From assembly GCF_006345805.1 (NCBI RefSeq), contig NC_043012.1, positions 39,184,001-39,248,000 on the forward strand: 64,000 nt of DNA, written 5' to 3'. How positions within the stretch are numbered: position 1 is the stretch's first letter; each line of letters starts with the position of its first letter. The notes below the pieces were generated by a model that had not been told where the DNA came from, ran no database searches, and saw only the letters and a program-made list of their open reading frames with translations. Shown here one piece after another: positions 2,571 through 36,195 of this stretch. Position numbers and translations under genes: made by a program. The stretch is from Octopus sinensis. Its lineage: Eukaryota.

Positions 2571-3275
2571 ATTCAGTAGTTTTATTTTTATAACGTATTT
2601 TCATTTCACTACCGAGCGCAGCTCTATGTGCCTTGGGTATGTGCTGTGATTTGTTGTTATGCTCTGATGGTTACTGTATCGAAAGTGTTCTGCGTAGGAT
2701 GAATGCAGTGCCTAGTAGTGCAATTTTCTGTATGTTATATGCGTTTGTAAGTCCTGGTCTTTTTGTTATGTATTTGTCTGAATATTTTTTTATCATGCCT
2801 AATGTACCTACTATGATAGGAATTGTTTCTGTTTTTTGATTCCACATTCCAGTTACCTCTATTTCCAGGTCTTTGTATTTTGAAAGTTTCTCCATTTCTT
2901 TTAGTGACATGTTGTCATCTGCTGGTATTGATACATCAATTAGAAAGCATTTTTTTCTTCATGATCTCTGACAACTATATATGGTCTGTTGGCCTTAATT
3001 TCTCTATCTGTGTGTATTGGCATATCTCAGAGTATGGTTGCTTTCTCGTTTTCTGTGACCTTTTCTGGTGTGTTCCCATACCATCTTTTTTCTGTTGTTA
3101 TTTCATAATGTTGGCATAGTTTCCAATGTATGTAGGTTCCAATTCTGTCATGTCTGTGAATATATTCCTTCTTAGCCAGGACTGGGCAGCCAGAGATAAT
3201 ATGATTTATTGTTTCTTGTCCATCTCCTCATATTCTGCAGTTACTTGTTATATTTCTTTTCATTGCACGTTTTTG

Positions 3276-3277
<2 letters not shown>
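2571..3277 (-). mobile_element. 5'-truncated R4/Dong-like LINE (CCHC finger, RLE, 3' UTR), family D1
   Basis: ORF 2671..2910 (EKLSKYKDLEIEV..W...IPIIVGTLG); near-identical to 51161-51773 and 55567-56280; (ATT)n on both flanks. Confidence 0.9.
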
Positions 3278-9277: not shown

Positions 9278-9949
9278 ACAAGCACAAACACATGTATACA
9301 CACACTTTTACTCACACGCATCTCTGGTGACAAAAGTATAATTAGTCAGTGATATTTATGTCTAATCATCTCCCTAGCAACAATCGTCTAATATCGATTG
9401 GAAGGCATAAAAAGAGAATGCACATTTCCCCTTCATATTTACTACATATTTCAAATTTAAAATGCTAAAACGACTCCCGTGCTCTTCTGAATTGGAGGAA
9501 GTGAGGCGGGTAGAAAAAGGGTGGCTGATGCTGCTGTCATCATGAATTACACTTAACTCAGCTGTAAGATGTAATAGTTCGCTGATTGAAGATGCATATG
9601 ATAAATGATGTGACAATTCAGCCGTGACCATCCCGTCACATACCAGATTACGTTATCTAAGGTTCTTCCGCTGTGTGCTGGTATGGCTACTGAGATAATA
9701 GCAAGTGGAAACTCAGTAGAGTGCGTCCATCATCGGATCAGACGCAAGCGAATGTACGGAAGGCTTAGATATCATAGGATGTACTTTCGTACGATGTGAA
9801 CAGTCAGGGCTTCAGATATTTGCAGGGCCATTGCTGGGTGTAAACAGTTCTGTTGGGGATAGAAACAAAAGGCTCGTTCCCTCAACAAATGGGAAAGTTT
9901 CGAGACCTGAGACAAAGGATCACTTTGACTAAAAATGTCTTTTCAATTT

Positions 9950-10146
9950 TATCTTTTATTTGTCTCAGTTATTGGACCTCGGCCATGCTGGGGTGCTGCC
10001 CTGAAGGCTACTTTTTTAAAGGCAAGTGCTTATGCTATCGCTCTCCTTTTGCCGATCGGCTAAGTTACGGGGACGTAAAACACACCAACATTGGTTGTCA
10101 AGTGGTGGTAGGGGCCAAACAGACACAAAGACACACATACACACAC
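9950..10146 (-). mobile_element. 3' half of long SINE family 2 (partner of the 5' half at 13087-13249)
   Basis: Matches 34820-35030: GGCCATGCTGG tail, CTTTTGCCGA..GCTAAGTTACGGGGACGTAAA, GGTTGTCAAG, then the internal CA/TA microsatellite. Confidence 0.8.
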
Positions 10147-10151
10147 ATATA

Positions 10152-10203
<52 letters not shown>

Positions 10204-10396
10204 TATATACTAAGTAATTAAGGGTTTAGCAACGAATTGCCTCACCACACACCGAATTTAGAAATAGCAGTCAAAGAGTTATAGCTATTCTTTCTACTAA
10301 AAGGGAGATCTCAGTAAAAACACAGCACTTGAAAGGCAAACACAGACAGGTAAGAGAGAATGAAATGACGGCAATCTATCATACAATTTTAAGTCA

Positions 10397-10487
10397 CCTA
10401 CGGACGTACGTTTCGAAATTAAGTTTTAGGAAAGCATAAGAATTAGATAATCATGTCTTACCCAACTTATTTTCTCATCAGCGTAGG
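10397..10487 (-). ncRNA. Type I hammerhead ribozyme (A1)
   Basis: Minus strand: CCUACG-CUGAUGA-GAAAAUAAGUU...AACUUAAUUUC-GAAA-CGUACG-UC-CGUAGG. Perfect 6-bp stem I, full core, long stem II, palindromic stem III (ACGUACGU), GUC site; predicted cut between 10403 and 10402. Confidence 0.9.
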
Positions 10488-10979
10488 ACACTACAACTAT
10501 GAATAATTGTATATTAAATTTCGAGATACTAGAAGGCATCATCTCAACTCAGTATCAGAGCGAGCTAAAGCCGTTACCAGTATCACCAAATTCAAAATGT
10601 GAATGAAAGTTTGTGTCACCAACCCCTTCCCACCCGCGTGTAGCCAAGACAAGATGCTGTGGTCATTTACTGGAATGAAATATGGCTATCAGTAACAATA
10701 TAGGGTGAAATTAATTAATTTGGAATAATCATTAATTACACCAAGTGGATCTCGGCATGTAAAAGCCTCATTCGAGGAAAGTTTAAGTAATACTAAGTAA
10801 TTAAGGGTTTAGCAACGAATTGCCTCACCACACACCGAATTTAGAAATAGCAGTCAAAGAGTTATAGCTATTCTTTCTACTAAAAGGGAGATCTCAGTAA
10901 AAACACAGCACTTGAAAGGCAAACACAGACAGGTAAGAGAGAATGAAATGACGGCAATCTATCATACAATTTTAAGTCA

Positions 10980-11070
10980 CCTACGGACGTACGTTTCGAA
11001 ATTAAGTTTTAGGAAAGCATAAGAATTAGATAATCATGTCTTACCCAACTTCTTTTCTCATCAGCGTAGA
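10980..11070 (-). ncRNA. Type I hammerhead ribozyme (A2)
   Basis: Same motif 583 nt away; stem I UCUACG/CGUAGG keeps pairing through U-G; predicted cut between 10986 and 10985. Confidence 0.88.
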
Positions 11071-11126
11071 ACACTACAATTATGAATAATTGTATATTAA
11101 ATTTCGAGATACTAGAAGGCATCATC

Positions 11127-11422
11127 TGCAACAGCTTGGGTTTCAGAGGACCACAGCTCTTTAACATCCTCCCTAAATGCCTGAGAGACTTACATGGTGT
11201 GGATGTGGGTTTCTTTAAAACTAAACTGGATCTCTTCTTGTTGTGAGTCCCAGATGAACCTACCTCACGACAGGAGACGCGGATGCGGGCAGCAGCATCG
11301 AACTCCCTTGTTGATCAACTGCCACGTATCAGAGGTGGATTCACAAATTAGTGTAGCTCGTTCAGCGGTGGTGCCCCAGCATGGCCGCGGCCTTCGGGCT
11401 AAAACATTTTTAAGGATTTAGG
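11127..11422 (+). mobile_element. 3' end of a CR1-group LINE (ORF2 C-terminus and 3' UTR)
   Basis: Manual translation from 11127: CNSLGFRGPQLFNILPKCLRDLHGVDVGFFKTKLDLFLL*VPDEP...AASNSLVDQL, typical of the post-RT end of invertebrate CR1-like ORF2. Confidence 0.7.
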
Positions 11423-11499
<77 letters not shown>

Positions 11500-11504
11500 A
11501 TACA

Positions 11505-11576
<72 letters not shown>
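11423..11576. repeat. (TA)n microsatellite
   Basis: Direct reading; lies between the CR1 fragment and element B. Confidence 0.95.
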
Positions 11577-11578
<2 letters not shown>

Positions 11579-11846
11579 AAAAAGGGGGTCGAATTAATTA
11601 ATTGTTAATAAATTCGACCAAGCAGTATTCGGTATGTAAAGACCATTTACGGTATATTTGAAGTATTAATTTATAAAAATATGTAAAGTAAAAGAATTCA
11701 CTTTACCACACACCGAACTTTTCAGAAATAGCAGCCAAAAATTTGACTATTTCTTCAACTGCAAATAAAAGTCTCCAGACATGCATACTCAGAAAAATAA
11801 CTCACATAGGTATAAGGGAAAATGAAAGATCACATCCATACGATAC

Positions 11847-11906
11847 CCGAGGACAGTCTGTTTCTGGATTTGTGGGTAAAACGCCACTTTTCCTTCATCA
11901 GCTCAG
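11847..11906 (-). ncRNA. Type I hammerhead ribozyme (B1)
   Basis: Minus strand: CUGAG-CUGAUGA-aGGAaaaGUGGcguuuuacCCACaaaUCCa-GAAA-CAGACUG-UC-CUCGG. Stem I CUGAG/CUCGG, quasi-palindromic stem III ACAG-A-CUGU, GUC site (cut 11852/11851); first pair of stem II is an A.A mismatch. Confidence 0.8.
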
Positions 11907-12402
11907 AGATTTCTTCTGATTTAGATTTGAAAATACTAAGAATCAAACATACCCGTCCGATATCTGTAACATCGGACAAACCATGCCAGACACCCAGTAC
12001 TAGCGAATCCAAAAATACGAATGAGATCTATTATTCTCCCTGTCCACCCACGTGAGTCATAGAGCATTACATTTCTACAGAGGTAAAAACTGCAGTTCAA
12101 ATTCTTGGAGAGAAAGCATTATATTTTATCAAAAAGGGGGTCGAATTATTAATTGTTAATAAATTCGACCAAGCAGTATTCGGTATGTAAAGACCATTTA
12201 CGGTATATTTGAAGTATTAATTATAAAAATATGGTTAAAGTAAAAGAATTCACTTTACCACACACCGAAACTTCAGAAATAGCAGCCAAAAATTGACATT
12301 TCTTCAACTGCAAATTAAAAGTCTCCAGACAATGCATACTCAGAAAAATAACTCACATAGGTATAGGGAAAACAAAATGAAAGATCACATCCATTACGAT
12401 AC

Positions 12403-12461
12403 CCGAGGAAGTCTGTTTCTGGATTTGTGGGTAAAACGCCACTTTTCCTTCATCAGCTCAG
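12403..12461 (-). ncRNA. Type I hammerhead ribozyme (B2), 1-nt deletion in stem III
   Basis: Same motif ~555 nt away; reads GAAACAGACUUC, lacking one G (mutation or assembly indel). Confidence 0.65.
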
Positions 12462-13002
12462 AGATTTCTTCTGATTTAGATTTGAAAATACTAAGAATCA
12501 AACATACCCGTCCGATATCTGTAACATCGGACAAACCATGCCAGACACCCAGTACTAGCGAATCCAAAAATACGAATGAGATCTATTATTCTCCCTGTCC
12601 ACCACGTGAGTCATAGAGCATTACATTTCTACAGAGGTAAAAACTGCAGTTCAAATTCTTGGAGAGAAAGCATTATATTGTTATCAAAAAAGGGGGTCGA
12701 ATTAATTAATTGTTAATAAATTCGACCAAGCAGTATTCGGTATGTAACCATTTACGGTATATTTGAAGTATTAATTATAAAAATATGGTAAAGTAAAAGA
12801 ATTCACTTTACCACACACCGAACTTTTCAGAAATAGCAGCCAAAATTTGGCTATTTCTTCAACTGCAAATAAAAGTCTCCAGACAATGCATACTCAGAAA
12901 AATAACTCACATAGGTATAAGGGAAAAACAATGAAAGATCACATCCATCTGGAGACTTTTATTTGCAGTTGAAGAAATAGCCAAATTTTTGGCTGCTATT
13001 TC

Positions 13003-13076
<74 letters not shown>

Positions 13077-13086
13077 CATATGCATA

Positions 13087-13249
13087 TGACGGGTTTGCTT
13101 CAGTTTCCATCAACCGAATCCGCTAACAAGGCTTTAGACGGCCCGGGATCATAGCAGAAGACACTTACTCAAGTAGAGATGCAGTGAGACTTAAACTGGA
13201 TCCAGGCGGTTGGGAAGCAAGCTTCTTACCGCACAGCCACGCCTGCGCC
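13087..13249 (-). mobile_element. 5' half (tRNA-like head) of long SINE family 2
   Basis: Minus strand GGCGCAGGCGTGGCTGTGCGGTAAGAAGCTTGCTTCCCAACC...GGAAACTGAAG; homologous to 35147-35310 and 53262-53426. Confidence 0.8.
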
Positions 13250-14103
13250 TTTATCCAAAGAATAAATATAGGAATTCAGTTGTAAAGTTGAGCGGAGAAC
13301 GTTGTGGTACAGATCGATTACCCATTTGTTACATTGAGCCATCTACACAGAAAACAATTAACGACATCTACAGCTGTCAGCCAATCAGATTTGAGAAACG
13401 TTCATGTCAAGGAGAAGCTAATATGCTTCCCGCCAATTATGTCATTCACTTATGAAAATATCAAATATGACAAATTGACTAAAATGATCTTACCCCACTT
13501 CAACTATTGTTCTTCTCAAGATTCTTACAAAGAACAGAAATTGTTATTATTATTATTATTATTACTATTATTTTTATTATTATTGTTGTTGTTGTTTTTG
13601 TTGTCATCATTATCATCATCATTATTACCATTATCGTCAGCATAATTATCAACATCATCATTATCATCGTTATTATTTGTTATGTTTTTTTATTATTTTT
13701 ATTTCTATTATCTTTAAACTAATTTCTATTATTATAAAATTTTATTATCCCATTGTCATCTTCATAATTGTTTCATTCCTAAAATTTCAGACTTGTTTGT
13801 GCTTTAACGTAAAATAATTCATGTGGCCATATTTCTTGAAACTTTAAGCGGCGATGCCTTGAAATTGGGTCCAGCGATCGTTAGACATAATTGCCCCAGA
13901 AATATGTCATCCATTAGCAAATTATAGGTTCTGTTGATTTATTACATGGAATCTTTTCGTTCAACAACGTCGTTATTAGCATCTTCGTCATCATCGGCGT
14001 CATCATTAACATCGTCGTCGTCGTCGTCTTCAACTTATTTACACGATAATCATTATTATTGTTGATGTTGTTGTTGTTGTTGATGATGATGTTATTATTA
14101 TTA

Positions 14104-14712
14104 AGGCGACGAGCTGGCAGAATCGTTAGCACGGCGGACAAAATGCTTAGCAGCATTTCATCTGTCTGAGTTCAAATGCCGTCGAAGTCGATTTTGTCTT
14201 TCATCGTTTCGGGTTTTACTGACGTAGGTTCCAGATAAGAACTTGAGTCGGTGTAATTAACATTTCAGGTGTTGTGCAGGTAGCAGTAAAGATTATTATT
14301 GTTGACATTGTGGTTGTTGTTGCTGCTATTGTTGTCGTAATCAAGGCGGCGAGCTTGCAGAATCGTTAGCGGACAAAAGGATCTTGAATTCAGATATTGC
14401 CATATTCAACTTCACCTTTCATCTTTTTCGGGGTCGAGAACAAGATGTAACATTAACGTACTAGGGTCGATGTAATTGATTTTACCCTCCGCCCCTAATA
14501 TCAGGCTTTTTGCCAGAAGTCGAAAAATGAGAACCGTTAACTCGCCAGATGAAATACTTAACGGCATTTTGTCTGTCTACGTTTTGAGTTCAAATGCTAC
14601 CGAGGCCGTCCTCGCCTTTCATTCTTTCGGTATTGATAAAATAAGTTCGAGTTGAGCATTGGTGTTGATATAATCGACATTCCATTCCCGCCTGTAGTTA
14701 AAAGAATTGTTA
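14104..14712 (+). mobile_element. Three head-to-tail diverged SINE family 1 copies (~14104, ~14344, ~14530)
   Basis: Repeated GGCG.CGAGCT.GCAGAATCGTTAGC heads and CTTTCATC.TTTCGG cores. Confidence 0.75.
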
Positions 14713-16127
14713 TTATGTCATTTTCATGAAGTTCTCTTCTTTCAATTCTATGGCCTTTCTTCTTTCTATTCGGCATTAGCTTAGATGCATCATATACATA
14801 TATACATACATACATACATATATATATATATAATATATATATATATATAGCAAAGGGATTTGCTACCCGTCGGACTATCTAGAGTGTACCAAACGCCGTG
14901 TGATGTACACAACATGAGATTTCGGCCAGCCTCTGGGCGTTAAATACTCCTACCGGTGGATTTTTTTCTGTGTGCACAACCTAAATATCTCACAGGATTT
15001 ACGAAGCAAATGGATCGGACTGAGAATGGTGCTTACAGGTTAAATGAACCCAACTTGGTGCACACCATTTAAGTACCCGGTATTTTCCACAATCCTATAT
15101 ATATATATTGATACATATATATTTATCAATTTACTTATTTGTAGATAACCATTAGAATGTTACCTGTTACTTATTAATAATCTAATATCTATAATGTGTT
15201 CATCAAACGGAGAAATATAAAAATAATAATAATAAATCTATAACAACAACAACAATAATAACAATAATAATAATAATATCAATAATAATGATAATAATAT
15301 CAATAACAATAAGAAGACTATCAATGATAATAATATTAATAATTGTAATGATGAGAATGATGAGGAGGAGAAGGAGGTGAAGGATGGGGATGATGACGAT
15401 GATGATGATGGTGATGTTGATAGCAATAATTCTACTCAATACATAATGAAAACAGAAATAATAATTAATTATATAGATATTAATAATAATTGTAGTAGCA
15501 GTTGTTTTTGTTCTTGTTGTTGTAATAGTAACAACAACAACAACAACAACAACAACATAAAAATAATAAACCAGACACTTAAGGTTATATTTAATATATT
15601 GTCTACAACAACAACAGCAAAAACCAACACAGCCAGATCTGTCCAGATTTTTAAATCAATTCTAAATTAAATAACTGCCTTGAGATTATCGTCCTCCTGA
15701 AGATTTCAATAAAATATTCTGAAAAATTGACATCTTAATAAATTTGTTCATATTTATTTAGTTATTTCCAAAGTTTCTATGGATCGTTGTTGTTTCCCCT
15801 TTTTCCCTTTCCTTCCATACTTCATTCTCCAACATGCTTTTCTCTTCGTTTTTCTCTCATATTAATGTATATGTGTTTATTTTTACGCCTGTTTCTATTT
15901 CACTATAGAATTTTGGTTAACCATTTCCGTTATCTTTTATAGCTTGTGTCACTCACAAAAACAAAAGATTCTTTCTTTCTTTCTTTCTTTCTTTCTTGAG
16001 TTTAATTAAAAACAACGACAAAAGAGAAATAAATAAATAATAATAATAAACTACTGAAAATTATTAAAGTTAAATTAAAAGAAACATTAAAATATGATGA
16101 TAGCGATGTCGATGGTGATGATGATAG

Positions 16128-16173
<46 letters not shown>

Positions 16174-17229
16174 AGTAACTCGACAATGGTGGTGGTAGTG
16201 TAGACGATGTAAGAATCTCGATAGTGACAATTTCGAAGAAAACGATAGTGGCACATATTTACTGCTGCTGCTCCTGATGATGAGGATGATGGTGACGATG
16301 ACGATCATGATATGATTGTGATGACGATGAGGATAATGGCGAGGGTGTATTTCATTCGTCAAGTGCCTTCAAGATGTTATAAAACTGAAACAAAAATAAA
16401 ATCATATGCACATAAAAAAAGAGGAAAAACAAGGAGTAGGGAGGGGAGGGGAGGAGGAGGAGACTTCGAAGGAAAAGAAGAAGAAGAAGAAGAAGAAGAA
16501 CCATTCACTTTTATTGCGCTTGTGATTTAGATTTAAATCTTTCTTTACTGATTTATAAGTTAATTAATAATCAGCGTGTTAATCTGAGTGTTTGTTAATC
16601 CTCGATATCTGATTTCTTAAAGGCCAACTGTCACTGGATCCATACCCAACATTCAATATGGCGTCCTTCTTCGGGAGAGAAATTTATTAATGACGAGCCA
16701 CAGAACAGCAGGATTAATACGTTAGTCGACTTAAAACAACAACAATTACAAGAAAGAGAGAGAAGCTGACTTGATGTGTCATCTTGTTTAACACCATGAC
16801 CCGCTTCGGCGAATGTCTCCTCGATGTAATATGCCACGACGCCATCACGAGACCTGCCTGAATCAAAGAATGGTAGAATCAGTACGTCGCCATGTTTGAC
16901 ACAGTTATTGCCTTCAACCAAGGAAGGAGCCTCTGTGTTGTCACTCGGATTGCTATAAACCTCAACCGGACCTATAGCACACATATTACATAATTTCATA
17001 GTAAATAGTCGTTTGGTGGAATATCAGTAATCATCCGTCTGCTCGATCAGGGATGGCCTGGGGCTAAACCGCAACAATAGTAATACCGAGAAGTCGACCA
17101 AGAAATAATAAGGGCTTTCGAAATAGAGTAGAGGGGGATGCAAGGAAATCAAAATATATTTCTGCAGGTTTTCATCTCTGTGGGTTTCATTGTTGTAGTT
17201 TATTCTTTAGCTCCAATTTAGGTCATATT

Positions 17230-17900
17230 GAACAGACTTATGATCAAAGACATTTTATGGATTCCAACCATCTTCTTCTCCCATAATTCCTGGGAGCATT
17301 GTAGGAATAGAGTCTCTCAGCCCCTCTTGCATAAGAAACAACAGTCATTAGCCTTTCCGGCAGGTTTCTCAAGCGTGACGAATCGAGACTATGGAGATTC
17401 TCCAACCATTTCGTTACTGGTGTATATGTAAGTCTCCTGCGAGTTTCTTGGTCTTGAAGAATCCGTCTTGCGATTTTTTCCTGCGATAATTCCCATTGTA
17501 TGTCCGTAGTATCGGAGCTGTGATTTCTCAATGCAGAAAAGAAGCGTCTCGACCTGGACTGACTCCCTAATCTCCCTTTTACTTCCTCTGCGTAGTAGTG
17601 TTACTCCCGAGGCCCTTCTGAATAACCCCATATAGGCCATTTGTATTACCAAACTATCTTGGCCATAGGTGAACATAGGTTATGATACGCACAAAAAGCC
17701 TAATTTAAATAACGAGTTAGCCCTTTTCTTTTTGATCAAATCTTTCCTCTTCTCAGGATCAGATGCAGGGGATGGTGCATTTATGTGCTAGCACATATAG
17801 TTCTAGAATTCAATCCAACCTTCTGCCTTCTACCGTTCATGGCTACGGATATGTGATGCTTAAACTTATCCACTTGTCTCAGTGATTTTCAATTGAAAAT
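17230..17900 (-). mobile_element. Decayed RTE-clade LINE, RT C-terminal region
   Basis: ORF 17389..17676: MGLFRRASGVTLL...EIRESVQVETLLFCIEKSQLRYYGH fits the RTE pattern EMxFLRRIxGVT...IR..L.VE.....IE..QLRW.GH. Confidence 0.7.
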
Positions 17901-18499
17901 ATTGTGTCAATTAACTTGCGGCAGGCAGTGTACCATCAATCTTCAACTACCCATGCATAGTGTCCAGTAATTCCTAACTTCCTATCCACAGAGTCACATG
18001 CACTTTTAATTTCCTGTGCGCAGTGTACCAGTAACTCTTAGCTTTTCATCTTCAGTGTGCGAAAAATTGTTTTATTTCATTTCATGCGTGCCAAAAGTCA
18101 AAGAAATTGAAAATCACTGTCATAACATTTTTAAAATGGCAAGAATAAGAACTGCATATTTTCAAGTGAGTGTTCTAACAGTTGTTTGTCTTGGAGACAA
18201 TCCTCTTAACAGCCGATTTAAGCATTGCAACTCTTACACACTGGTGATCTCAAAGAATTAAATATTTTGCTTCCTTTGGGATATATAAACCGAAAATGTT
18301 AAAGATGAATTATTACCCCCTCACAGTATTAAAAGAATATCTATGAATGTTTGTGTATGGGACGAAAAGCTAACATTCGTGGTGAAAATGAAAACCTAAA
18401 TATTACACATACATGCATTCATACACCCTTGCATACGTACATACATATACATGCAGACATGCATGTATGTATACATACATATATGCGCGAAACATAAAT

Positions 18500-18776
18500 C
18501 TGCACATACATATATACATACATACATAGATACATACATACCTACAAACATACCTACATACATACATATATACATACATACATACATACATACATACATA
18601 CATACATACATACATACATACATACATACATACATACATACAGAAGTACCCTGTTGATGTTGAAATTCCAATGATAGATCCTTGGGTCTAAGTTAGAAAC
18701 CCGTTCTTCATTGCCAAGAAATATTGAAATATACATACATACATACATACATACATACATACATACATACCATACA

Positions 18777-18810
<34 letters not shown>

Positions 18811-18832
18811 CATACATACATACATACATACA

Positions 18833-18866
<34 letters not shown>

Positions 18867-18885
18867 CATACATACATACATACAT
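18500..18885. repeat. (CATA)n microsatellite blocks
   Basis: Direct reading; source of the YVCM/IHTY ORFs. Confidence 0.95.
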
Positions 18886-19287
18886 GGTTAAAAAGAACAA
18901 CAACGAAGTGATAGAGCAACAAGCAAGGTGTATTAGTTTGACGCTCATAGAAAATGAAAGGGTTCATTAATGTTTCGAGTCTAGGCTCTTCTACAGAAAG
19001 AATAGTTAAGGAGAAAAAAAGAATAGAGAAAAAAAACCCCGAGTCTGAATTAAACGGTCAACGCAGGCTGATATGACTGGAGGACAAAGACATTGGCTTG
19101 AGGAGGGGGTCGCAAGGGGGGACAGCTGTGGCCCGGCATGTGTGTACGTGTGTGTGTGCAAAGAGGTGAGCGTGTACGTGTGTGTGTGTGAAGCTAATGA
19201 GTGCGTGTGCATGTGTGTGCGTGTATGTATATGCATAAAAGACAATATTTGCGCGTGTGAGTTTGTGAATAGGTGTACGCGTGTACG

Positions 19288-19550
19288 AGTGTTTGAGGCT
19301 ATGTGACTTATGCGTGTGTTTGAGGCTATGTGACTTATGCGTGTGTGTGAGGCTATGTGACTTATGCGTGTGTTTGAGGCTATGAGACTTATGCGTGTGT
19401 TTGAGGCTATGTGACTTATGCGTGTGTGTGAGGCTATGTGACTTATGCGTGTGTTTGAGGCTATGAGACTTATGCGTGTGTTTGAGGCTATGAGACTTAT
19501 GCGTGTGTTTGAGGCTATGTGACTTATGCGTGTGTGTGAGGCTATGAGAC
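19288..19550. repeat. 27-bp minisatellite, 10 units (GAGGCTATGWGACTTATGCGTGTGTKT)
   Basis: GAGGCTATG starts at 19295, 19322, 19349 and so on to 19538, exactly every 27 bp. Confidence 0.95.
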
Positions 19551-20199
19551 GTGTTCGCGCGCGCGTGTGTGTGTATGTTTGTGTGTGTGTTTCTACGAGC
19601 GTGTGTGTATGAAGTTATTATATGTTTGGTTACTCTGTGCGTTGAGCATGTGTGCGTATGTGTGTTATTATTTCGTGATTATATGTTTGTGCCAGATACT
19701 ATGAGACATGTGTGTGTGTGAGTATGTGTGTGTGTGAGTATGTGTGTGTGTGAATACACATGTGTGTGCTTGTATATTGCTTCTTTATGCGTGTGACCCA
19801 GTGTGTGCCCCTTTGGCCAGCTAGTGCATGTGTACGAAGAACGAAGTATGTGTGTGTACATGAAGCTCATGTGGGCATGCATATATTCAGTATTTGTGCG
19901 TGTGTATATGCGTATTTGTGTGTGCATGTAACCTTGTATGTATGTGTGTGTGCGTGTGATTTGTTGGACGAAGTTCGGTTTTCCCTCATGGATACAGGTG
20001 TTTGGTAGAATAGAAGTGGCAAAAGTGGTAAGAGTTGAGCAGCGGTGGTGTAATTGTATACTTGCTGTTGCGCGTGTAAGGGTGGTGGTTGAGATGCAGG
20101 TGCCGGTACGTGTGAAGAGGGAAAACAAGAGGCTGTGCATGGGGAGATGCTAGTGAATGTGTGTGTGTGGAAGGTGGCGTGTTTGTAATGGCATGTTAA

Positions 20200-20665
20200 A
20201 TAACATGCAACATCATTTCTCCGGCTCTCGAATATGTTTTATAATTATCAAATGCACCATGCCACAGAAGCAGGAGAACCAACTCGTGGCTGTCGGACCA
20301 CATCACCCCTAATATCTGGCCACTTAACTGCCCAGACTGCAACCCCCTTGATTATTATGTGTGGGGCACAGTTGAGCGAGAGAACGTCAAAACTGCTTGT
20401 AACGCCAAAGATGAACTGAAAGCAAAGATTATGAGATCATTCCCCAACATAAACAAGAACAGCGTCCAGAAGAGTTGCCAGAGATTCCGAACTCGACTGG
20501 AGGTTATGGTTAAAGCCAAAGGCAATTTTATTGATTAAATTTTACTCTTTAGAATTTCCAGATATTTCATGTAATTTTGGTAAATATATCTGTTAAAATG
20601 AAATGCCAGTGTTATTTTCATTTTTGCGTAATTTAGACGACAATTTATTCACCGCCCCCCCTCTC

Positions 20666-20670
<5 letters not shown>
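20200..20670 (+). mobile_element. Tc1/mariner-superfamily transposase 3' fragment and right end
   Basis: Manual translation from 20317: WPLNCPDCNPLDYYVWGTVERENVKTACNAKDELKAKI...CQRFRTRLEVMVKAKGNFID* (WPPNSPDLNPLDY motif of maT/Tc1-like transposases); ends at CTG before (TA)n. Confidence 0.85.
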
Positions 20671-20711
<41 letters not shown>

Positions 20712-22079
20712 GATAAATAGGCAGATTAAAAGTAATTGAATATGTCACATTGACACTACGCTACACATTGCAATAAAGCTTGCATCGGGTTTCGCAGTCG
20801 ATTCATTAGCGTCTCATTGTCTTTCTGATATTCATTGTATTCAACACCGGGTTAAGAAAATTAAAGTTTCGTCGTGGGATTTGAGCTAAAAATGGAGAGG
20901 GATGTAACGAAAGGCCTCAAGGCATTAACTCCTGGCCTTCAATCGATAGTTCTATTCACGGGGCTTCAGATTGTATATAATTTAATAGGCAGCGCTGATG
21001 TGTCTTTCAAAGGGCAAATCTCGGAAGCGGGGAAGCATCTAAAAGATAGCTCCATTAGTCGTTCTTTGTTGCTCTGTGCGTTGCTTTTTGAAACACTTCA
21101 GCGGAATGATAATAAAGAATGATTCGAACCCACACATCGTGACTGAATATGTCATGCTATCCCTTCAAACTTCACTGCTGATGTACGTACAAATGAATTA
21201 TTGCCTTATATTGTCAATGGTTTATCGATCCGCTAACCTCATCCTAGTCTATGTCTTTTTCCCTTTCATTCTATTGCTCACAGCTATTACTACATTCTTC
21301 GATCGTTTTTTAGGGTCCTAGGTTAAAAGCACTCCACAGTGAGTAATGGATACATTTTACTCAAACACTGCCAGCTATAATTACGTTTCGTGTGTTCAAA
21401 TAGACACTGGTTTAAAACAGTATTTGACGTTTATCAATGAATTTGAAAACTTACTGATCCGGGCAGTTTTTGGCTTTTGTTAGATGAAAAGAGATTTAAA
21501 AGGAATCCAGCGTGGTGTTTCAAACAGCAAACCACGAACAAAACATTTAAATCAGCATTGTAGAATAACAAAGACCTCAATTAATTAAGTAATTAAAAAT
21601 CAATTACCTAATTAAATATAAAATAATTAAAGCATTATATAATATATTAATTGAATAAACAGCTGAATAATAAAATATAAGGCTTGTGAAAATCAATTAA
21701 TTAAAAATTTTCAAATGTAAGGAAAATGGTTTGGGGAATTATCGGCAATAATTATCCAATAAAAGAGATCGAAAGGAAAGTAGAATGATTGGAATTGGCG
21801 CGAAGAGTAAAGAAGCTAACGTTTCGGGACTTACTCTTCCTCTGAGTGTGAGAAAGTGAAATAGCGATTCAGTAGACTGTGGTATTGTCACTTGGATTCT
21901 ATGCCAGGGTGCAGATGCATATAGATACAAACACACACACACACACACACACATGCACACATACGCATACACACAAGCTTATAGATATATACATATGTTA
22001 CATATACCTATATATGCATCATATATACGTATATACATACATATACATATACACACATAACATAGATATAAAATGCGAT

Positions 22080-22992
22080 ATGGGTTCTCACGGGTAAGCT
22101 TTGGTTTTTCTATCCAGAGATTTTCAAACCAGGATTTACGTTCTATTATTTATAGCCTGATCTAAATCTATAGGGAATTAAACGTGCCAAACAATTAGAC
22201 ACAAAAACACTAAGAACAAAAAAACATAGCACCACACCTCAAACCAAAACATTACTTTTTATATCAACACACAACCCCAGAAACAGTGAGGCATTCAACA
22301 CTATTGTGCAAACTCTCCCTTTAGTAACTAGAGATCCAAAAATGAACGACATCCTGAAAACACACAAACTCATCAAATGCAAAAAACAAGACAAATCGCT
22401 AAAGAGACTACTAACAAATGCGAAGCTTTACAAAACAACCACGAAACCAACAGTTGAAAAATGTGGACGCCCGAACAGTGGCACCTGCCCCAACCTGCTT
22501 GACGGCTCGGATTTCCTTTTCAAACAAGGACAGATGTTCACAATTAAAACCAATTTTACCTGTGCCTCTGAGAACCTAATTTATGTAATAACCTGCTCGG
22601 GTTGCAGTCATTTTTACATTGGACAAACGAGTTTAACTTTGAGAAAGAGAATCACTCTGTATAAGGAGCAAATCCGTTTCCCGCAATACAGACAAATTCC
22701 TCTCGGTGAACACATAGAAAAATGTGCAGGTAACATCAAGCCAAATTTCACAGTCTTCCCTTTCTACCAGTGCAAAGACGCAATTTCTCAACAAGAACGC
22801 TTAAATAAAGAAACTTTTTTCATTGAAAAACACAAAACACGTCTTAATAGGCACGCATAACCAACTTTTATATTTTTACATATCACATCACTGTATATAA
22901 ATCCCCCTTCTAAACAAGGTCCCTTTTTTAAAACCTGTCTCTTTTCTGAAATTCATTGCATGCCCAACGCCGGAAGTCACCGCACGCCACTG

Positions 22993-23042
<50 letters not shown>

Positions 23043-23215
23043 GTACACAGAGTGACAGAGAAAAGGAGACAGGCAGACAGACAGGCGCACTTATATAGAA
23101 GGTATGAATTTACCATAAAACAGCCATTCATGACGAATCCATTGAAAGGATAAAATCGCTGAATAAATAGTTTTTACCCAAATCCTGTCAACTTGTCAAT
23201 CGTATTTTTCTTAAC
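22080..23215 (+). mobile_element. 5'-truncated Penelope-like element with interrupted 3' region
   Basis: Contains the GIY-YIG ORF 22306..22860; boundaries approximate. Confidence 0.75.
22306..22860 (+). CDS. PLE C-terminal GIY-YIG endonuclease (partial ORF)
   Basis: KCGRPNSGTCP Cys linker, FTCASENLIYVITCSGCSHFYIGQTSLTLRKRI, EH..KC, RLNKETFFI..H...LN. Confidence 0.9.
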   Translation: MQTLPLVTRDPKMNDILKTHKLIKCKKQDKSLKRLLTNAKLYKTTTKPTVEKCGRPNSGTCPNLLDGSDFLFKQGQMFTIKTNFTCASENLIYVITCSGCSHFYIGQTSLTLRKRITLYKEQIRFPQYRQIPLGEHIEKCAGNIKPNFTVFPFYQCKDAISQQERLNKETFFIEKHKTRLNRHA

Positions 23216-23324
23216 ACGCACACACACATACCCACACACACTCATACACACATGCATACACACTCAAACACACACATGCATATGTGTATGTATATATATA
23301 AATATATATATATGTGTATGTATG

Positions 23325-23361
<37 letters not shown>

Positions 23362-23634
23362 CAAATGAAAGACAGAAGATGGAATATACGAGGATTTATT
23401 GATAATCATGTCGTTTTAACACATCTACCATCGATTCCTCATGGCTTGGACACTCAACAACTGGTTCAGGGGCATCCGGTGGTGTCAGATGTATCTCGTC
23501 GGGTGATAAATAAATACAACTCGTTAAAATATATAGAGAGAAAAGCAGTCAGAGGGAGAAACTATTTTCATTTATACAGAAGATCAAAACTAAAATCACA
23601 GATGGCAAAAAGAGAAACGAACATGCAATCCGGC

Positions 23635-23672
<38 letters not shown>

Positions 23673-23987
23673 ATGTGTGTGTGTGTGTGTTGTGTGTGTA
23701 TGTCTGTGTGTGTGTGTGTGGTATCTGTGTGTGTGTGCGTCTGTGTATAGGTCTATAACTTCGCCTAGCAAATTATTTTATTTGCTAATTAAAGTTCGAA
23801 GCCTAGGTCTGGGTGTAAAAAAACATGGTAAAAATTTTTATTTTTCATTCCCTTCGAAATTGCTTTTAAATGTCGTTTTGGACGTTTTGACTGCTCCTTC
23901 TAACATGTAAGGCAGTCTGTTAAAAGTTGCCCCTTTTTGAGTTTAAATGTACACTAATTTTATATGTATAGGTCTAAATATATATAT

Positions 23988-24259
23988 ATAAATGGAGTTT
24001 AACGCAGGTATAATTCCTTTGGAATAATATCAGTGAAAACTTCGAAACATGTGTCGGATGTAAAAGTATTTCAATTATATTTGCGTTAAACTCCATTTAT
24101 CTATTTATATATTATACAAACAATTCCACGTAAACCCGAAGTTACTACCTTTAAAAACAAGCAGTTACAACCTCTTTGCTTGTGTGATTTTTTGCTACCC
24201 TGGTAACTATTTAATCTATTTTTTCCGTGTTAATTGTTAACAAGGGAAAACTACACTCA

Positions 24260-24260
<1 letters not shown>
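23988..24260 (+). mobile_element. Short PLE-terminus-like fragment with a 17-bp inverted repeat, between (TA)n tracts
   Basis: AAATGGAGTTTAACGCA ... TGCGTTAAACTCCATTT; half-hammerhead CTTCGAAACATGTGTC; TTTGCTACCCTGGTA shared with the end of the PLE at ~31575. Confidence 0.55.
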
Positions 24261-24341
<81 letters not shown>

Positions 24342-24401
24342 TATATATATACATACATACGCACACACACACACACACAAATACACGCGCGCGCGTTCAC
24401 A

Positions 24402-24530
24402 CAACGGGCTCCCAGACCGTTTCCATTTACAAAATCCACTGAAAAGTCATTGGCTTTCCAGGGGCTAAAGTACAACCACTTGCCCATGGTGCTGCCCGGC
24501 TTGATCAAACCTGAAACCACATGATTTGAA
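24402..24530 (-). mobile_element. SINE family 2 fragment (5' half, decayed)
   Basis: ACGGGCT...GTTTCCATTTACAAAATCCAC...CACTTGCCCATGGTG...AACCACATG homologous to 35147-35270. Confidence 0.6.
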
Positions 24531-25160
24531 GAATACTCGAGTGCTATTCTTTGCAAATGGAGATAATTTTACTTCATAGAATCTATTTCTGATTTTATAT
24601 TACTTATATATTTTTTCATCTGCATTATTTTAATATTTCTCATGATGTCGCAGAAAAATTTACAAATATGTTTTATCGAATTTCCATTGTAAATCACTTC
24701 GGCTTTCGCTACGAAAACTGCTAGCTAGCAGTCTGAGTTGCTAGAGGTAGCAGCCAAAATTGTCTTGATTTCTCTTTATGCCATAAAAACAAACCCAAAA
24801 TAGGAAGGAACGCATTATATAAAGAAGCCTCACAGTTATTATACTCCGTCACAAAAACAGAAATACTAGGATTAATGTACCAGTAATATTCCATGTAGAA
24901 AAAATGTAAGTCAGAAGTAGTGTTGGCCACGGTTGTCTTTGATCATACATCTGTTTGATCAGCACTAAACGAGTAGAAAACATCAAAACCGGCAACAAAT
25001 AAGAATTTACTGAAAAACAAAAAGAAAGAAATTATATTTTCTCTGAGCAGAATCGACACAAAGCTTTCTCTACATTTCATTTGCAACGCAATTTAGACGA
25101 AGGTTAACTAAATGCTGTAGTTTTCCCCCCACTTTTTACTAATAATACTACTACTACTAC

Positions 25161-27739: not shown

Positions 27740-27930
27740 TCTTTTCTACTCTAGGCACAAGGCCCGAAATTTGTTTTTGGAGGAGGGAGACCAGTCCATT
27801 AAATCGAGCGCAATACGCAACTGGTACTTCATTTATCGACCCCGAAAGGATGAAATGCAAAGTCGATTCCGGCGGAATTTGAACTCAGAACGTAATGACA
27901 GACGAAATACCGCTAATCATCTCGCCCTGC
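27740..27930 (-). mobile_element. SINE family 1 copy
   Basis: CTGGTACTTCATTTATCGACCCCGAAAGGATGAAA...GGCGGAATTTGAACTCAGAACGTAA. Confidence 0.8.
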
Positions 27931-29329
27931 GTGATGTACTGTAAATATTGTTTCTAAATATCTGCACATATATTTCACAGGGAATTTTTGTGCCTCCAAT
28001 GTCGTTTTCGTGTACAAGTTGACCCACCAATTTTAGCTGCAAATCTCGGTCTGAAATATTCGACTTGCATAACGGGAAACACGTTAAGTGACAAAATCTC
28101 ATACAACAACATCAACTAAAAACAATAACAAATAGCTGGAAAAAGTACAATCAACAGCGTACGCATTTACGTTGTGTTGACCATCTTTCTAACAGTTCTT
28201 GACCACAGGTGTCTTTCTGTTTCCTGAGTCTTTCGTGCCGGTATAATCACCGCACAATTCTAACATATACTGGAGTGAGTTGATCTCCAGTCTTGAAGTT
28301 TTCGAACAGGCAAATATCTGCCATATCACGGTCACACTGATATGCGTCCTGAATCAGTTTACAGGGAACTTTTCCAGGTTTGGGTATCCTCCTCCACCCT
28401 AGACTGGGTCATGAAAGGAACTCTCTACTGGCCATCTCATCAGAGAATCATTGAATAAGAAAGATACAATGAAAGAAGTTCCTCATTGGTGCTTGTTACA
28501 ATGGGATGGAGATGTTGTTTGGAGATGGTGGGACTGCGCGGTTGTCCAAGTGCTCTGAAGAGGTCACTCAGAAGACGTCAAATAATTCGGATTCAAAAAC
28601 AGGTGAGTAGCGTAGATTGAACGACAGAGTGGAAACATGTTGTGGCCAGCGATGTAGGTCAATAAACAAAAAGGCAAAAGAATATTTTTATATAAATTAT
28701 ATTCGACTGACAGGAATTTGCGAAATGTGGATACAATTCTTTGTTTTATTTAATTCCACCTGTATTATTGCTGCAATGTGGCATAAGTCAGACGCATCAG
28801 ATCACAGAGTGTTTAGAAACGATGCATATATTTTCTCTAGATACGCCATGCTTTCAATAACTAACAAACTGCATATTTCCATATGAAGTGATTATTTTCA
28901 TTGTCTAGAATTTTGCATTCTATAGACGCCGTGTACTATTTCCAGGCTGTTTAGCCTATATCGGTTCACCTATATTTCCATTTCTATATATTGAGCGGTT
29001 TTATACTTAGCAGCACAAGTTAACCGAATTTGCAGGCGAGTTAAACGTTGTTAGCTGTTGCTTCTAATGATTAATGTGACTTCCCATGGTACAATAATTA
29101 TTGCTGAGACTCATTTTCTTCTCCTCTTCCTTCACTCTCCGTTTAGTGAAACACTGCTTTGGGCGAACAACGTCTGCTTGTAATTATGTAACTACTCTAA
29201 ATTTATTGTACTTAAAGTGTTTATGGATATTAACGATGGGTGCTCACGAACCTGTTTCGCTATACCTGCAATATACTACTACAAATATTACTACTACTAC
29301 TGATAAAAAAATAATCATAACTATTAGCG

Positions 29330-31512: not shown

Positions 31513-31728
31513 TATATGGTATTTAAGTAGACAAATGAATTATCTTATTACGGATAATTCGAAGATAACCGATACCTGGGTAGCAAACTCACAACAGAAA
31601 AAGCACGGTTGAAGTTACGACCATAGGGCATAAAATCCGTGCCTTAGTGCGGAAATTTGAAGTTTAATTTAATATATTAAGTATAGGAAAGAATGGAGCT
31701 GAACGAAGATTTAACAAAGTTCCTTTTT

Positions 31729-31814
31729 TATTTCGACATATGTTTCGAAGTCTGCAAAATCCCTAATTCCGAATGAATAAGGAGTCAATTATGCAGCTTT
31801 CTCTTCAGGGAAAA
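31729..31814 (-). ncRNA. Type I hammerhead ribozyme in PLE 3' region (weak stem I)
   Basis: Minus strand: UUUUCC-CUGAAGA-GAAAGCUGCA...UGCAGACUUC-GAAA-CAUAUG-UC-GAAAUA; palindromic stem III ACAUAUGU and GUC site. Confidence 0.75.
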
Positions 31815-32365
31815 CCAGGAACTTAATTCTCCAACAAAATGCACAAGTTTTTCGATGACTGCTCACTAGGAGCCCATAGAGATAATGATAAATATTGTCT
31901 ATTTATAGGGGGTGACGCCAGATTGGTTGAAAGTAGGAGAAAATGTCAGTTAAAATAGGGTTCAATCAGGGTTGGTGAAGGAAGGTAAAGGAAAACTAAA
32001 GTGAGGGAATGTATTCTCTATGACTGGTGTTTATATTTGATTTATTTTATGAATGAGTGCTCGTATGTATGTGTGTGTAAATTTGCCTTAATGTGTGTGT
32101 GTGTGTCTGTGACTGAGTGAATGTATGTGTAGAAGGCAGAGAAAAAGAATTAACGGTCAAGAGGTGAAAAGACTGTGTCTGTGTGTTCGAATGTGTCAAC
32201 TTAAGAGGGAGAGGGTAGAAAGAGCCACAATAGTAATGACAAGAGACAAGGTTACTGCTGGAATTGGTAGTGTTCTTAGCAATTATGAGAAAGTCTTATA
32301 GACTAAAGGGATGAGAAATCACAAATTAATTTAATAGGAAGTCCAGGGGTTATCTATATTAGACT

Positions 32366-32857
32366 TCATTGGTATGAGTGAAAGGTATGATTTTTCCAGT
32401 GAAGGCATCTGAAAGATCGTTCGACAATCGAATTTATTACTTGGCCTCGAGCAAACAGAATATGAAAGAGTTCGGAATTACAGAGGGCACAGATTTTTCT
32501 GCCCTTATCAAACGGTAAGGACACTGATAATATTGACCATTCCAGCTTAAAAGTTGAATTTGCGTTCTTCAAACGCCAGATTAATTTGCTTAGCCCCGTG
32601 GCGTGCTGTTTACTGTTATCACGAAACGTGGAAAAATGATTTGATATCCTTGTGGCTAATTTCGAGGAGGTTGCCCCTATATAGAGGTAGACATCGGATC
32701 CAGTAGAAATTTTGCACTGGTAAGTGGTGTTTCTAATTTTGGAGTTATATGATAGGAACCCTAATCTATTGGGATTAGTTTCCGATACTAATACAGCGTT
32801 CTTATTTCTATGATGGGTGTAAAAATTACTGCTGGATTTGGGCACAATACTATTCAT
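32366..32857 (-). CDS. PLE GIY-YIG endonuclease (partial ORF)
   Basis: TTYQCKI...YIGATSSKLATRISNHFSTFR...TGLSKLIWRLK...WSIL...CALCNSE...CLH. Confidence 0.85.
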   Translation of the reverse strand: MNSIVPKSSSNFYTHHRNKNAVLVSETNPNRLGFLSYNSKIRNTTYQCKISTGSDVYLYIGATSSKLATRISNHFSTFRDNSKQHATGLSKLIWRLKNANSTFKLEWSILSVSLPFDKGRKICALCNSELFHILFARGQVINSIVERSFRCLHWKNHTFHSYQ

Positions 32858-33140
32858 CCTATTTTCATTACTATTTAAGGCAATATCACCTGCACATTCC
32901 CTGTTTCTGGGAATGCTGTGATTGTTATTGTCCGTAAAGCTACTGTTGTTAAAAACGCGGCTACTATTATTGCTGAGACCCCCTCCGTTAATGACCAGGC
33001 CAGTGCTCTTATCCTTATTACTATTAATAACGCGTTATTGGACTCCTTATTCATTCGGAATTAGGGATTTTGCAGACTTCGAAACATGTCGAAAATAAAA
33101 TAAAGGAACTTTGTTAAATCTTCGTTCAGCTCCATTCTTT

Positions 33141-33269
<129 letters not shown>

Positions 33270-33801: not shown

Positions 33802-34179
33802 CATACATACATACATACATATATACACGCATATTAGCGTTTGTGTATCTATGTAGGCATATATGTGTGTGTTTATGTATGTATGTCATGTGTTAACCGA
33901 TCTCGGGTTGATCTTCGAAGTAGGTTCTGTGAACAAATTTGTGTTGTTTATCTGAAGTAATTGCGTAGAATTGAAGCACGAAAAATATGACAACAAATAC
34001 GACATGACATCCACATTGCTTTATTCATTCTTCATCATTTATTATTTATGGAGTCATTAAAGAATTTGTCGTGTCTAAATGGTATGCGATCTATTACAGT
34101 TTTAGTGTTGTTGTTGTTGGTGGTGGTGATGGTGGTGATGCTACTACTACTACTACTACAAGTTTTAATAATGGCTTTA

Positions 34180-34378
34180 AATTTTGCCACAAGGACAGCA
34201 ACTTTGGAGAAGGAGATGAGCCGATTATATCGGTCTTAGTGTTTCTCTGGTACTCAATTTATCGATTCCGAAAGGATGAGAGGCAAAGTCGACCTCGGCG
34301 GAATATGAAACCAGAGCATGCAGACAGACGAATGATTGCTAAGTATTTTGGCTGGCGATTCTGACACATCGCCGCCTT
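34180..34378 (-). mobile_element. SINE family 1 copy
   Basis: CTGGTACTCAATTTATCGATTCCGAAAGGATGAGAGGCAAAGTCGACCTCGGCGGAAT...TCGCCGCC. Confidence 0.8.
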
Positions 34379-34440
34379 AATAATAATAATGTCTTCAAAT
34401 TTTGTCACAAGGGCAGAAATTTTGGGGGAGAGCATGAGTC

Positions 34441-34489
<49 letters not shown>

Positions 34490-34750: not shown

Positions 34751-34819
34751 CGTAAGCACGAAAATTTCCTATGAATTTTATTTCATTTCATTTACGTTTT
34801 TACTCGTTTTCACTCTTTT

Positions 34820-35080
34820 ACTTTTCTCCTCTTTTACTTGTTTCGGTGATTTGACTGCGGCCATGCTGGAGCACCGCCTTCAGTCGAACCAATCGATCCT
34901 AGGACTTAATCTTTGTAAACCTATTACTTATTCTATCGTTCTCTTTTTGCCCAACCGCAAAGATTCGAGGACGTTAACAACGGTTGTCAAGCGATGGTGA
35001 GAGAACTAATACAGACACACAAATACATAGATGTATATGTATATATACATATATATGTGTGTGTGTATGTGTGTGTGTGT

Positions 35081-35127
<47 letters not shown>

Positions 35128-35310
35128 TGTGTGTATACATATATGTAGTACGGGCTTCTTTCAGTTTCCGTGTACCAAGTCCTCTCACAAGGCTTTGATC
35201 GGCATGAGTCTATAGTAGGAGACACTTGACCAAGATGCCACGCAGCGGGACTGAACCCGGAGCCATGTGGTTGGGAAGCAAGTTTCTTAGCCTACAGCCA
35301 CTCCTGCGCC
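34820..35310 (-). mobile_element. Complete long SINE family 2 with internal (CA)n microsatellite
   Basis: tRNA-like head GGCGCAGGAGTGGCTGTAGG...GGTTCCGGGTTCAGTCCC-like B box, internal microsatellite 35030-35145, tail GGCGGTGCTCCAGCATGGCCGCAGTCAAAT. Confidence 0.85.
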
Positions 35311-35494
35311 CTTTTATTTATCTATGTTCTTTTCACATTTTTTTTCATTTCATTTTGAAAATGAAGAATCTGGTGTTATTAATTGAAAGGCCTGTCAATG
35401 ATTACATTGGATTTCTTTGTCACAGCGTTCGGGAAGACACTCGGTAAGAAATGGAACCAAAATTTAAAGAAAAACCTAATAATAATAATGATAA

Positions 35495-36110: not shown

Positions 36111-36195
36111 TAATAATAATAATATAATAATAATAATAATTATAATAATAATAATAATAATAATATAATAATAATAATAATAATAATATAATAAT

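Follow-up and report, generated by a model that had tools for sequence, protein, structure and literature searches.

An octopus SINE, probably a single copy, split at its internal microsatellite by putative hammerhead retrozymes and a LINE fragment

We analyzed a 64,000-nt stretch of the Octopus sinensis genome (RefSeq assembly GCF_006345805.1, contig NC_043012.1, positions 39,184,001 to 39,248,000, forward strand), referred to here as the window; all coordinates are those of the window. At 9938-10146 and 13086-13249 lie the tail and head of a short interspersed element (SINE), both on the minus strand and collinear with an intact copy at 34816-35310. The gap separating them (10147-13085, 2,939 bp) holds TA-rich tracts, the 3′ end of a long interspersed element (LINE), and two arrays, A (10207-11127) and B (11577-13003), which are probably non-autonomous Penelope-like elements (PLEs) or retrozymes. 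Both arrays are on the minus strand and have their 3′ ends on TA. The features of the locus and the two uninterrupted SINE copies are as follows (X3 and X7 are sequence runs described below).

9938-10146, minus strand: SINE 3′ half, with body, CR1-like tail, and the CA part of the internal microsatellite (blastn, alignment, profiles)
10147-10206, unstranded: left (TA)n tract adjoining the 3′ end of A (tract scan)
10207-10789, minus strand: element A, full 583-bp unit of a putative non-autonomous PLE or retrozyme (self-alignment; 583 period in X3 and X7)
10397-10487, minus strand: type I hammerhead of A unit 1, with a 6-bp stem I, a long stem II, and a palindromic stem III (Rfam, descriptor)
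10790-11127, minus strand: second copy of A, 5′-truncated, a partial tandem of the pseudo-long-terminal-repeat type (self-alignment)
11126-11127, unstranded: head-to-head joint of A and LINE, a 2-nt overlap in an interrupted 6-of-7 match, without TA (loose ends at 11126 and 11127)
11126-11422, plus strand: 3′ fragment of a LINE with APE and reverse transcriptase (RT), comprising the end of open reading frame (ORF) 2, a 3′ untranslated region (UTR) with the SINE tail motif, and short terminal repeats (protein matches)
11423-11576, unstranded: middle (TA)n tract, flanked by the LINE 3′ end and the B 3′ end (tract scan)
11577-12129, minus strand: element B unit 1, 553 bp, with a hammerhead at about 11846-11907 (self-alignment, descriptor)
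12130-12684, minus strand: element B unit 2, 555 bp, with a hammerhead core at 12456 (self-alignment)
12685-12948, minus strand: third copy of B, 5′-truncated, ending before the hammerhead (self-alignment)
12948-13003, plus strand: inverted 56-bp piece of B at the 5′ end of B, an inversion of the PLE type (98% identity to inverted 11724-11779)
13004-13085, unstranded: right TA-rich tract, the remainder of the SINE's internal microsatellite (tract scan)
13086-13249, minus strand: SINE 5′ half, the head with A-box-like and damaged B-box-like motifs and a CORE-like segment (blastn, alignment, profiles)
34816-35310, minus strand: intact reference SINE copy (alignment, profiles)
53262-53660, plus strand: second uninterrupted SINE copy, with internal deletions in its tail (alignment, profiles)

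The two halves very probably belong to one SINE copy, because they are collinear, complementary, and equally diverged. A first-pass annotation had described one SINE split into halves of the same orientation and order, and blastn, alignments, and microsatellite order all bore this out. The intact SINE matched the head region at 13073-13252 (73% identity, E 4e-26) and the tail as two pieces, 10029-10176 and 9952-9991 (E 1e-14 and 2e-5). Read in minus-strand sense, the split SINE has its 5′ end at 13249 and its 3′ half at 9938-10146; the halves share one strand and the correct order, with no SINE sequence missing or doubled. The middle of the uninterrupted copies is CA-rich and then TA adjoining the head (35005-35150 and 53425-53525), and the same order is kept here, CA then TA on the left of the gap and TA on its right. 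It had also been held that halves of different ages would speak against a split; we found the ages concordant, with 34 of 153 head sites (22%) and 31 of 146 tail sites (21%) differing from the majority of the other copies in leave-one-out comparisons. Measured against the intact copy, 44 of 163 head sites and 57 of 169 tail sites differ (Fisher p 0.19), and the head-versus-tail distances to three other SINE copies show no difference (Fisher p 0.19, 0.21, and 0.55).

Several observations weigh against a single copy. The split head is 22% diverged compared with 12-14% in two full heads, while the split tail (21%) lies with the others (21-25%); private changes are likewise uneven, with 26 in the split head vs. 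10 and 14 in two other copies, and 17 vs. 12 and 10 in the tail. This comparison rests on five head and five tail pieces, too few for subfamilies. No target-site duplication joins the halves (the best match, 6 nt, falls within the 5-8 nt of mismatched controls), and those of the uninterrupted copies were likewise no better than controls. The missing duplication and the mild head/tail asymmetry in private changes would suit two neighboring SINE copies that lost the DNA between their microsatellites, and so were joined, while the insertions took place or later, as would the orphan halves present in the window (24401-24535 is a head that lacks a tail, and 61376-61561 a tail that lacks a head) and the A/LINE joint, which is evidence of target loss at the locus. 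We nevertheless consider such a fusion unlikely because the halves follow in the correct order on one strand, complement each other exactly, and are equally diverged; moreover, full-length copies are sparse (two uninterrupted in 64 kb), so that a chance pairing would be improbable.

Profiles of the SINE halves found five heads in the window (35310, 53262, 13249, 24535, and 54086) and five tails (35017, 10125, 53526, 54009, and 61561); they were built from window copies, and their training set included all five heads and four of the five tails found. A reversed-sequence control gave no matches. Another SINE copy, at 53892-54883, is cut inside its head by a TA/TATG tract; next to it comes a 203-bp element present twice, at 54158 and 54682 (99%), and there are further duplications of 122 bp.

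Arrays A and B carry hammerhead motifs in at least two consecutive tandem units. A has two motifs, the second at about 10980-11070 on the minus strand inside the truncated copy; B has one intact motif and one, in unit 2, with a single base missing in stem III. A hammerhead descriptor found six strong type I motifs in the window compared with a mean of 0.08 (maximum 1) in 50 shuffles; A contains two of them, B one, and a GIY-YIG PLE cluster at 45-48 kb the other three. Rfam Hammerhead_1 matched A unit 1 below its gathering score (E 5.5e-4; 23.6 bits against 34), and Rfam gave no hammerhead match on B. No Rfam family reached the gathering level anywhere in the window, and at E up to 5 the 29 matches in 9900-13300 fell mostly on TA tracts and included no ribozyme.

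The copies within each array are nearly identical: 3 of 338 sites differ between the A copies, 1 of 541 between B units 1 and 2, and 1 of 260 and 3 of 260 in the other B comparisons. The SINE, by contrast, is 21-22% diverged, and both inserts are much younger than the element that they interrupt. The alignment of B units 1 and 2 has 22 gap columns against one substitution, many of the gaps lying in homopolymer runs. Small gaps in B, perhaps including the missing stem III base of its second hammerhead, may be assembly errors. Judged from frame lengths, A and B have no protein-coding capacity; the only stop-to-stop frames of at least 90 aa touching them (9844-10221, 11009-11314, and 12239-12616) do not span a unit.

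Cut-to-cut monomers of the two elements (10403-10985 and 11852-12402, minus strand) are predicted to fold better than shuffled sequences (z −5.7 and −8.9; 0 of 100 shuffles), with predicted energies of −161 and −166 kcal/mol in sense compared with −113 and −108 kcal/mol in antisense. A and B can be aligned over their whole length, 13 of 78 consensus pairs being changed on both sides, and their fold tree distance is 282, against 494 ± 36 for A and shuffled B (minimum 420 of 25). For these two sequences, the modeling suggests distant homology along the full length, with predicted folds that run in parallel and changes that compensate each other. Variants of the A family gave the predicted fold no significant support (8 of 32 break a pair, 10.3 expected, P 0.20; one row at which the A copies differ was dropped). 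These monomers represent, as an observation in its own right, what appear to be two octopod hammerhead retrozyme families.

Instead of coinciding with the hammerhead cut site, the DNA 3′ ends of A and B fall some 196 and 272 nt beyond it in the downstream direction, at different monomer positions. By analogy, such positions fit internal initiation by the RT, as in an anole PLE (PMC11167929). Comparison with the ends of the GIY-YIG elements of the window gave no significant match, and the motif shared by A and B had no match in metagenomes. Taken together, the sequence features point to non-autonomous PLEs or retrozymes, for which ribozyme cleavage and RNA circles are predicted.

The LINE fragment retains 74 codons of an ORF2 C-terminus with one in-frame stop. 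Its protein matches are ORF2 C-termini with APE and RT (best P0001, 83% identity, E 6e-25), the best relatives carry PF00078 with PF14529/PF03372, and 2 of the 11 matches are named to species, Argonauta hians and Octopus vulgaris. We take it to belong to the CR1 group, an assignment from C-terminal motifs rather than from an RT phylogeny separating CR1, L2, Crack, and CR1-Zenon.

We compared 10540-11436 with sequence runs from two organisms, X1 and X3, and used a further run, X7, for sequence structure only. Matching contigs numbered 6,929 in X1 and 3,781 in X3; A and the LINE are therefore high-copy families. Both X3 and X7 show A continuing with its 583 period, and in two X7 contigs (AT)n directly adjoins the 3′ end of A. 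LINE copies extend 5′ of 11126 in at least 40 contigs of X1 and A copies extend past 11127 in at least 5 contigs of X3, so the joint belongs to neither family. A family-wide composite of A and LINE was ruled out on the same grounds, each family continuing past the joint. The earlier placement of A, a CR1 3′ fragment, and B inside the microsatellite stands, with the amendment that A and the LINE are fused rather than separated by TA.

The joint could be read as the product of one Penelope-driven event, in which a PLE protein nicked both TA strands, with A RNA as template at one end and LINE RNA at the other, and microhomology united the resulting cDNAs, a two-template version of the inverted end of B. 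The fusion is head to head, with both 3′ ends on TA and none between, B shows the same geometry with its own sequence, and cleavage and extension of both strands have been demonstrated for a purified PLE protein (PMC11167929). The rough ages also overlap, with 8 of 588 and 2 of 297 sites departing from what at least 85% of the family depth shows, in X1 as well as in X3 (from 40 of 77 rows). However, the flanks beyond the 3′ ends of this LINE family are in any case often AT-rich or TA-like (mixed and partly TA-like in 76 and 63 contigs, agreement ∼0.5), and two steps suffice; the PLE RT that has been studied starts inside its own RNA (PMC11167929); and the case is a single locus whose joint is bridged by none of the 24 pieces listed from more than 10,800. 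We regard a single event as improbable, and we hold to the same low estimate for the fuller version, a two-RNA Penelope event inside a SINE that carries the tail of the same LINE family, the retrozymes forming a cephalopod lineage with units of 550-580 nt, a conserved fold, and a moved DNA 3′ end. If true, it would make PLE 5′ inversions general two-primer events able to capture foreign RNA. Our preferred reading keeps the two insertions separate.

The identity of the SINE was approached through its head and tail. ARAGORN found no tRNA gene in the SINE and Rfam no tRNA match on the intact head; the A-box-like and B-box-like motifs were placed by eye according to the general box consensus. The column majority across four SINE heads, CCTTGGG, equals the CORE 7-mer quoted in PMC5786205, a comparison that covered these seven bases. 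The SINE tail and the LINE 3′ UTR have 20 of 22 nt of a motif in common (LINE 11352-11422; SINE 34816-34870 and 9938-10010), and the score against the LINE was reached by 0 of 1,000 shuffles for the intact and split tails and by 9 of 1,000 for the 61-kb tail. When the runs were compared with the LINE end, 18 contigs of X1 and 22 of X3 had only the last 60 bp in common with it, and one joint, seen in both, places SINE-like sequence upstream of the common tail. Since the tail motif is shared beyond shuffles, the LINE family inserted here is a candidate partner of the SINE. No viral contig matched the SINE motif; 44 metagenomic loci did, none over more than 24 nt and none from a cephalopod, and they were dropped as chance. 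A second dispersed repeat family, probably another SINE, is represented by more than 10 pieces that are 66-85% alike (1440-1780, 14094-14684, 27743-27936, 34166-34441, 35359-35653, and 61661-63154).

The head of the split SINE lies upstream of both ribozyme arrays on the minus strand, as the first-pass annotation had noted, and one could imagine its RNA polymerase III (Pol III) promoter transcribing the arrays and feeding retrozyme RNA. The shared strand of the head and the two inserts has a 1 in 4 chance of arising by accident, and at 24.0-24.3 kb a PLE-like end lies on the strand opposite to its own SINE head. The B-box-like motif of the split head is AGTTTAAGTCTC, that of the intact copy GGTTCAGTCCC; set against both full copies, the former is damaged. 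The first T5 occurs 322 nt from the SINE start, and 10 T-runs of at least four lie between the head and the first hammerhead. Pol III read-through, which the same annotation had already doubted, is rejected because of the damaged B box and the T-runs; it is highly unlikely that the SINE head drives the ribozymes.

We also considered how far the SINE seeds TA landing pads for PLEs, as had been proposed. The window holds 32 TA tracts of at least 16 bp, 28 outside the SINE and 4 in SINE copies; the latter come from two loci (three at the split SINE and one at 24262). Five TA loci are occupied by PLEs, two linked to the SINE (the split SINE and 24.3 kb) and three outside it (23.0 kb, 31.5-33.2 kb, and 45.2-47.9 kb). 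An insert entered the count only if a GIY-YIG frame, a hammerhead, or homology together with an inversion attested it, which makes the outside count a lower bound. Two of five microsatellite-bearing SINE copies are occupied compared with 3 of 25 other TA loci (Fisher p 0.18), and the SINE covers 2.9% of the window yet accounts for two of the five occupied loci (binomial p 0.008). These figures, with the 11.6% share of SINEs in the O. vulgaris genome (PMC13282606), would suit a SINE family that supplies a disproportionate number of pads to PLE-type elements genome-wide, in which case one transposable element family would steer the landing of another. However, without the index locus, which was chosen for this very feature, occupancy falls to one of four (Fisher p 0.47; binomial p 0.11), most TA tracts lie elsewhere, the outside occupancy is a minimum, and the three uninterrupted SINE copies hold only 6-13 bp of pure TA. 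We find a disproportionate role unlikely, although less so than read-through from the head. What holds of the proposal is TA targeting by A and B; the special supply is not supported. Within the window the SINE supplies some targets, a special role being neither shown nor excluded, and it would be one of several TA sources rather than a dedicated partner.

The history that we favor, with a probability of roughly 0.72, is that an old SINE served as a passive target for successive TA insertions, that A and B were mobilized in trans by an endonuclease-positive (EN+) PLE, and that the 5′ end of A was joined to the LINE by microhomology. The CORE-like SINE, putatively of tRNA type and equipped with a CR1-like tail and a CA/TA microsatellite in its middle, would have inserted long ago and decayed by ∼21-22%; its homology is observed, its timing an estimate, and the copy is probably dead. 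TA-preferring retroelements would then have entered its short TA stretch, each insertion leaving or lengthening flanking TA and thereby renewing the target. Such expansion after insertion into short TA targets has been described for maize TAFTA elements (PMC5907723). B and A would have been copied in by target-primed reverse transcription with the RT/GIY-YIG protein of an autonomous PLE, an enzyme that we infer; the proposed process would account for the 3′ ends on TA, the partial tandems, and the inverted 5′ end of B. The CR1-type LINE end would also have entered TA, the truncated 5′ end of A being joined to it by microhomology with loss of the TA between, in an order that we likewise infer.

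Besides the head/tail asymmetry and the missing target-site duplication, two points count against this history: no autonomous partner of A or B was found in the window, and all SINE pads with at least 16 bp of TA are occupied (2 of 2 compared with 3 of 25, p 0.028). This last count is circular, given that insertion itself probably lengthens TA, and it may leave room for real enrichment. The alternatives weighed above address different parts of the history, and their likelihoods are not meant to sum to one.

Elsewhere in the window, GIY-YIG-coding PLE fragments have TA at their ends (Pfam E 1.4e-5, 0.0054, and 0.0028, the latter two below the curated cut-off). The strongest match lies in a PLE 3′ fragment at 22070-22996 that ends on TA. 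At 23960-24535, a second SINE head, 35% diverged, has a microsatellite that abuts a PLE-like end in opposite orientation; no tail for this 24.4-kb head was found in 13301-24400. A TA-flanked PLE fragment at 31518-33142 has a GIY-YIG-like frame and an inverted end of 100 bp; its hammerhead, at 31735-31808, is degenerate. Two TA-flanked PLE insertions at 45185-48727 have C-terminal GIY-YIG and complex inversions, with a variant hammerhead core, CCGAAGA, in three intact-looking motifs and one mutated motif. LINE pieces with RT or zf-RVT frames, presumably Dong/R4-like, lie in (ATT)n at 2574-3276, 51163-51772, 55567-57684, and 36187-37500, the first three being 94-98% alike. Tandem LINE 3′ pieces (zf-RVT) within an (ATAG)n tract at 41350-43860 are, we assume, Tx1-like. 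Both sets are flanked by microsatellites and have no relation to the split SINE. A 27-bp minisatellite occupies 19289-19550 (9.7 copies, 95% matches).

The locus makes a clean teaching case of microsatellite stacking. For cephalopod repeat annotation, it is a warning that a single SINE copy may lie in halves separated by kilobases. Its nesting yields relative ages, with A, B, and the LINE piece far younger than the SINE. The by-products outweigh the headline: two putative octopod hammerhead retrozyme families with a common predicted fold and a candidate SINE-LINE partnership. The A/LINE joint is also relevant to the origin of PLE inversions, a matter that the PLE papers cited here describe as unresolved. 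We found no published account of cephalopod retrozymes or of SINE-internal microsatellites as PLE targets in a search that left subscription papers mostly outside. Active PLEs, CR1, and SINEs are on record in O. vulgaris (PMC13282606), and the supplementary repeat libraries of PMC13282606 and PMC8557442 may already include these families.

Among known systems, metazoan tandem hammerhead retrozymes (PMC7229834, Cervera and de la Peña 2020) are close to A and B. Like these non-LTR retrozymes, A and B have non-coding tandem units, type I hammerheads with a short palindromic stem III, a strongly self-paired predicted fold, co-occurrence with PLEs, and units within the 51-972 bp range. They differ in unit length (553-583 bp vs. 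150-450 bp in PMC7229834), in the 59-nt stem II region of A, and in their position within (TA)n with PLE-type truncation and inversion; in addition, A and B are read here from sequence, their cleavage and circles being predictions. The words octopus and cephalopod are absent from the text of PMC7229834. Retrozymes have been proposed to be non-autonomous PLEs (Li et al. 2026, bioRxiv 10.64898/2026.07.22.740005), and type I hammerheads with palindromic stem III that act as dimers are known for PLEs (PMC4209133). PLE traits include partial tandems, inverted 5′ copies, and microsatellite bias (PMC8557442, Craig et al. 2021). With EN+ PLEs (PMC8557442; Frangieh et al. 2024, PMC11167929) A and B have in common the partial tandems, an inverted 5′-truncated copy, (TA)n targets, and a DNA 3′ end at some distance from the hammerhead cut, whereas they lack an ORF and B alone has the inversion. 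The helper of A and B would more likely come from a C-terminal-endonuclease clade, because the Naiads, the PLE clade stated to prefer (TA)n, are without canonical hammerheads.

The SINE resembles the octopus CORE-SINEs OR1 and OR2 (cited in PMC4824008 and PMC4758252) in its putative tRNA-type head and the 7-mer quoted for CORE, and it may be one of them, a likeness by description rather than to a reference sequence. Mollusc SINEs with CR1-type tails are known (PMC4824008, PMC4758252, PMC11481361); with mollusc SINEs that have such tails or internal (CA)n our element has in common a tail shared with a CR1-group LINE, and with the MESC SINEs of Haliotis an internal microsatellite. Unrelated elements stacked end to end in one microsatellite, with lengthened flanking TA, have also been described for the SaTar MULEs of guayule and rice (PMC5907723) and for MINE-1 and Micron (PMC3812793). 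Those are DNA transposons, mostly of plants, whereas here retroelements occupy the microsatellite of a SINE and two of the inserts are fused. The split SINE locus is thus a new example of known microsatellite-targeted stacking, and mostly an ordinary one for elements that aim at TA.

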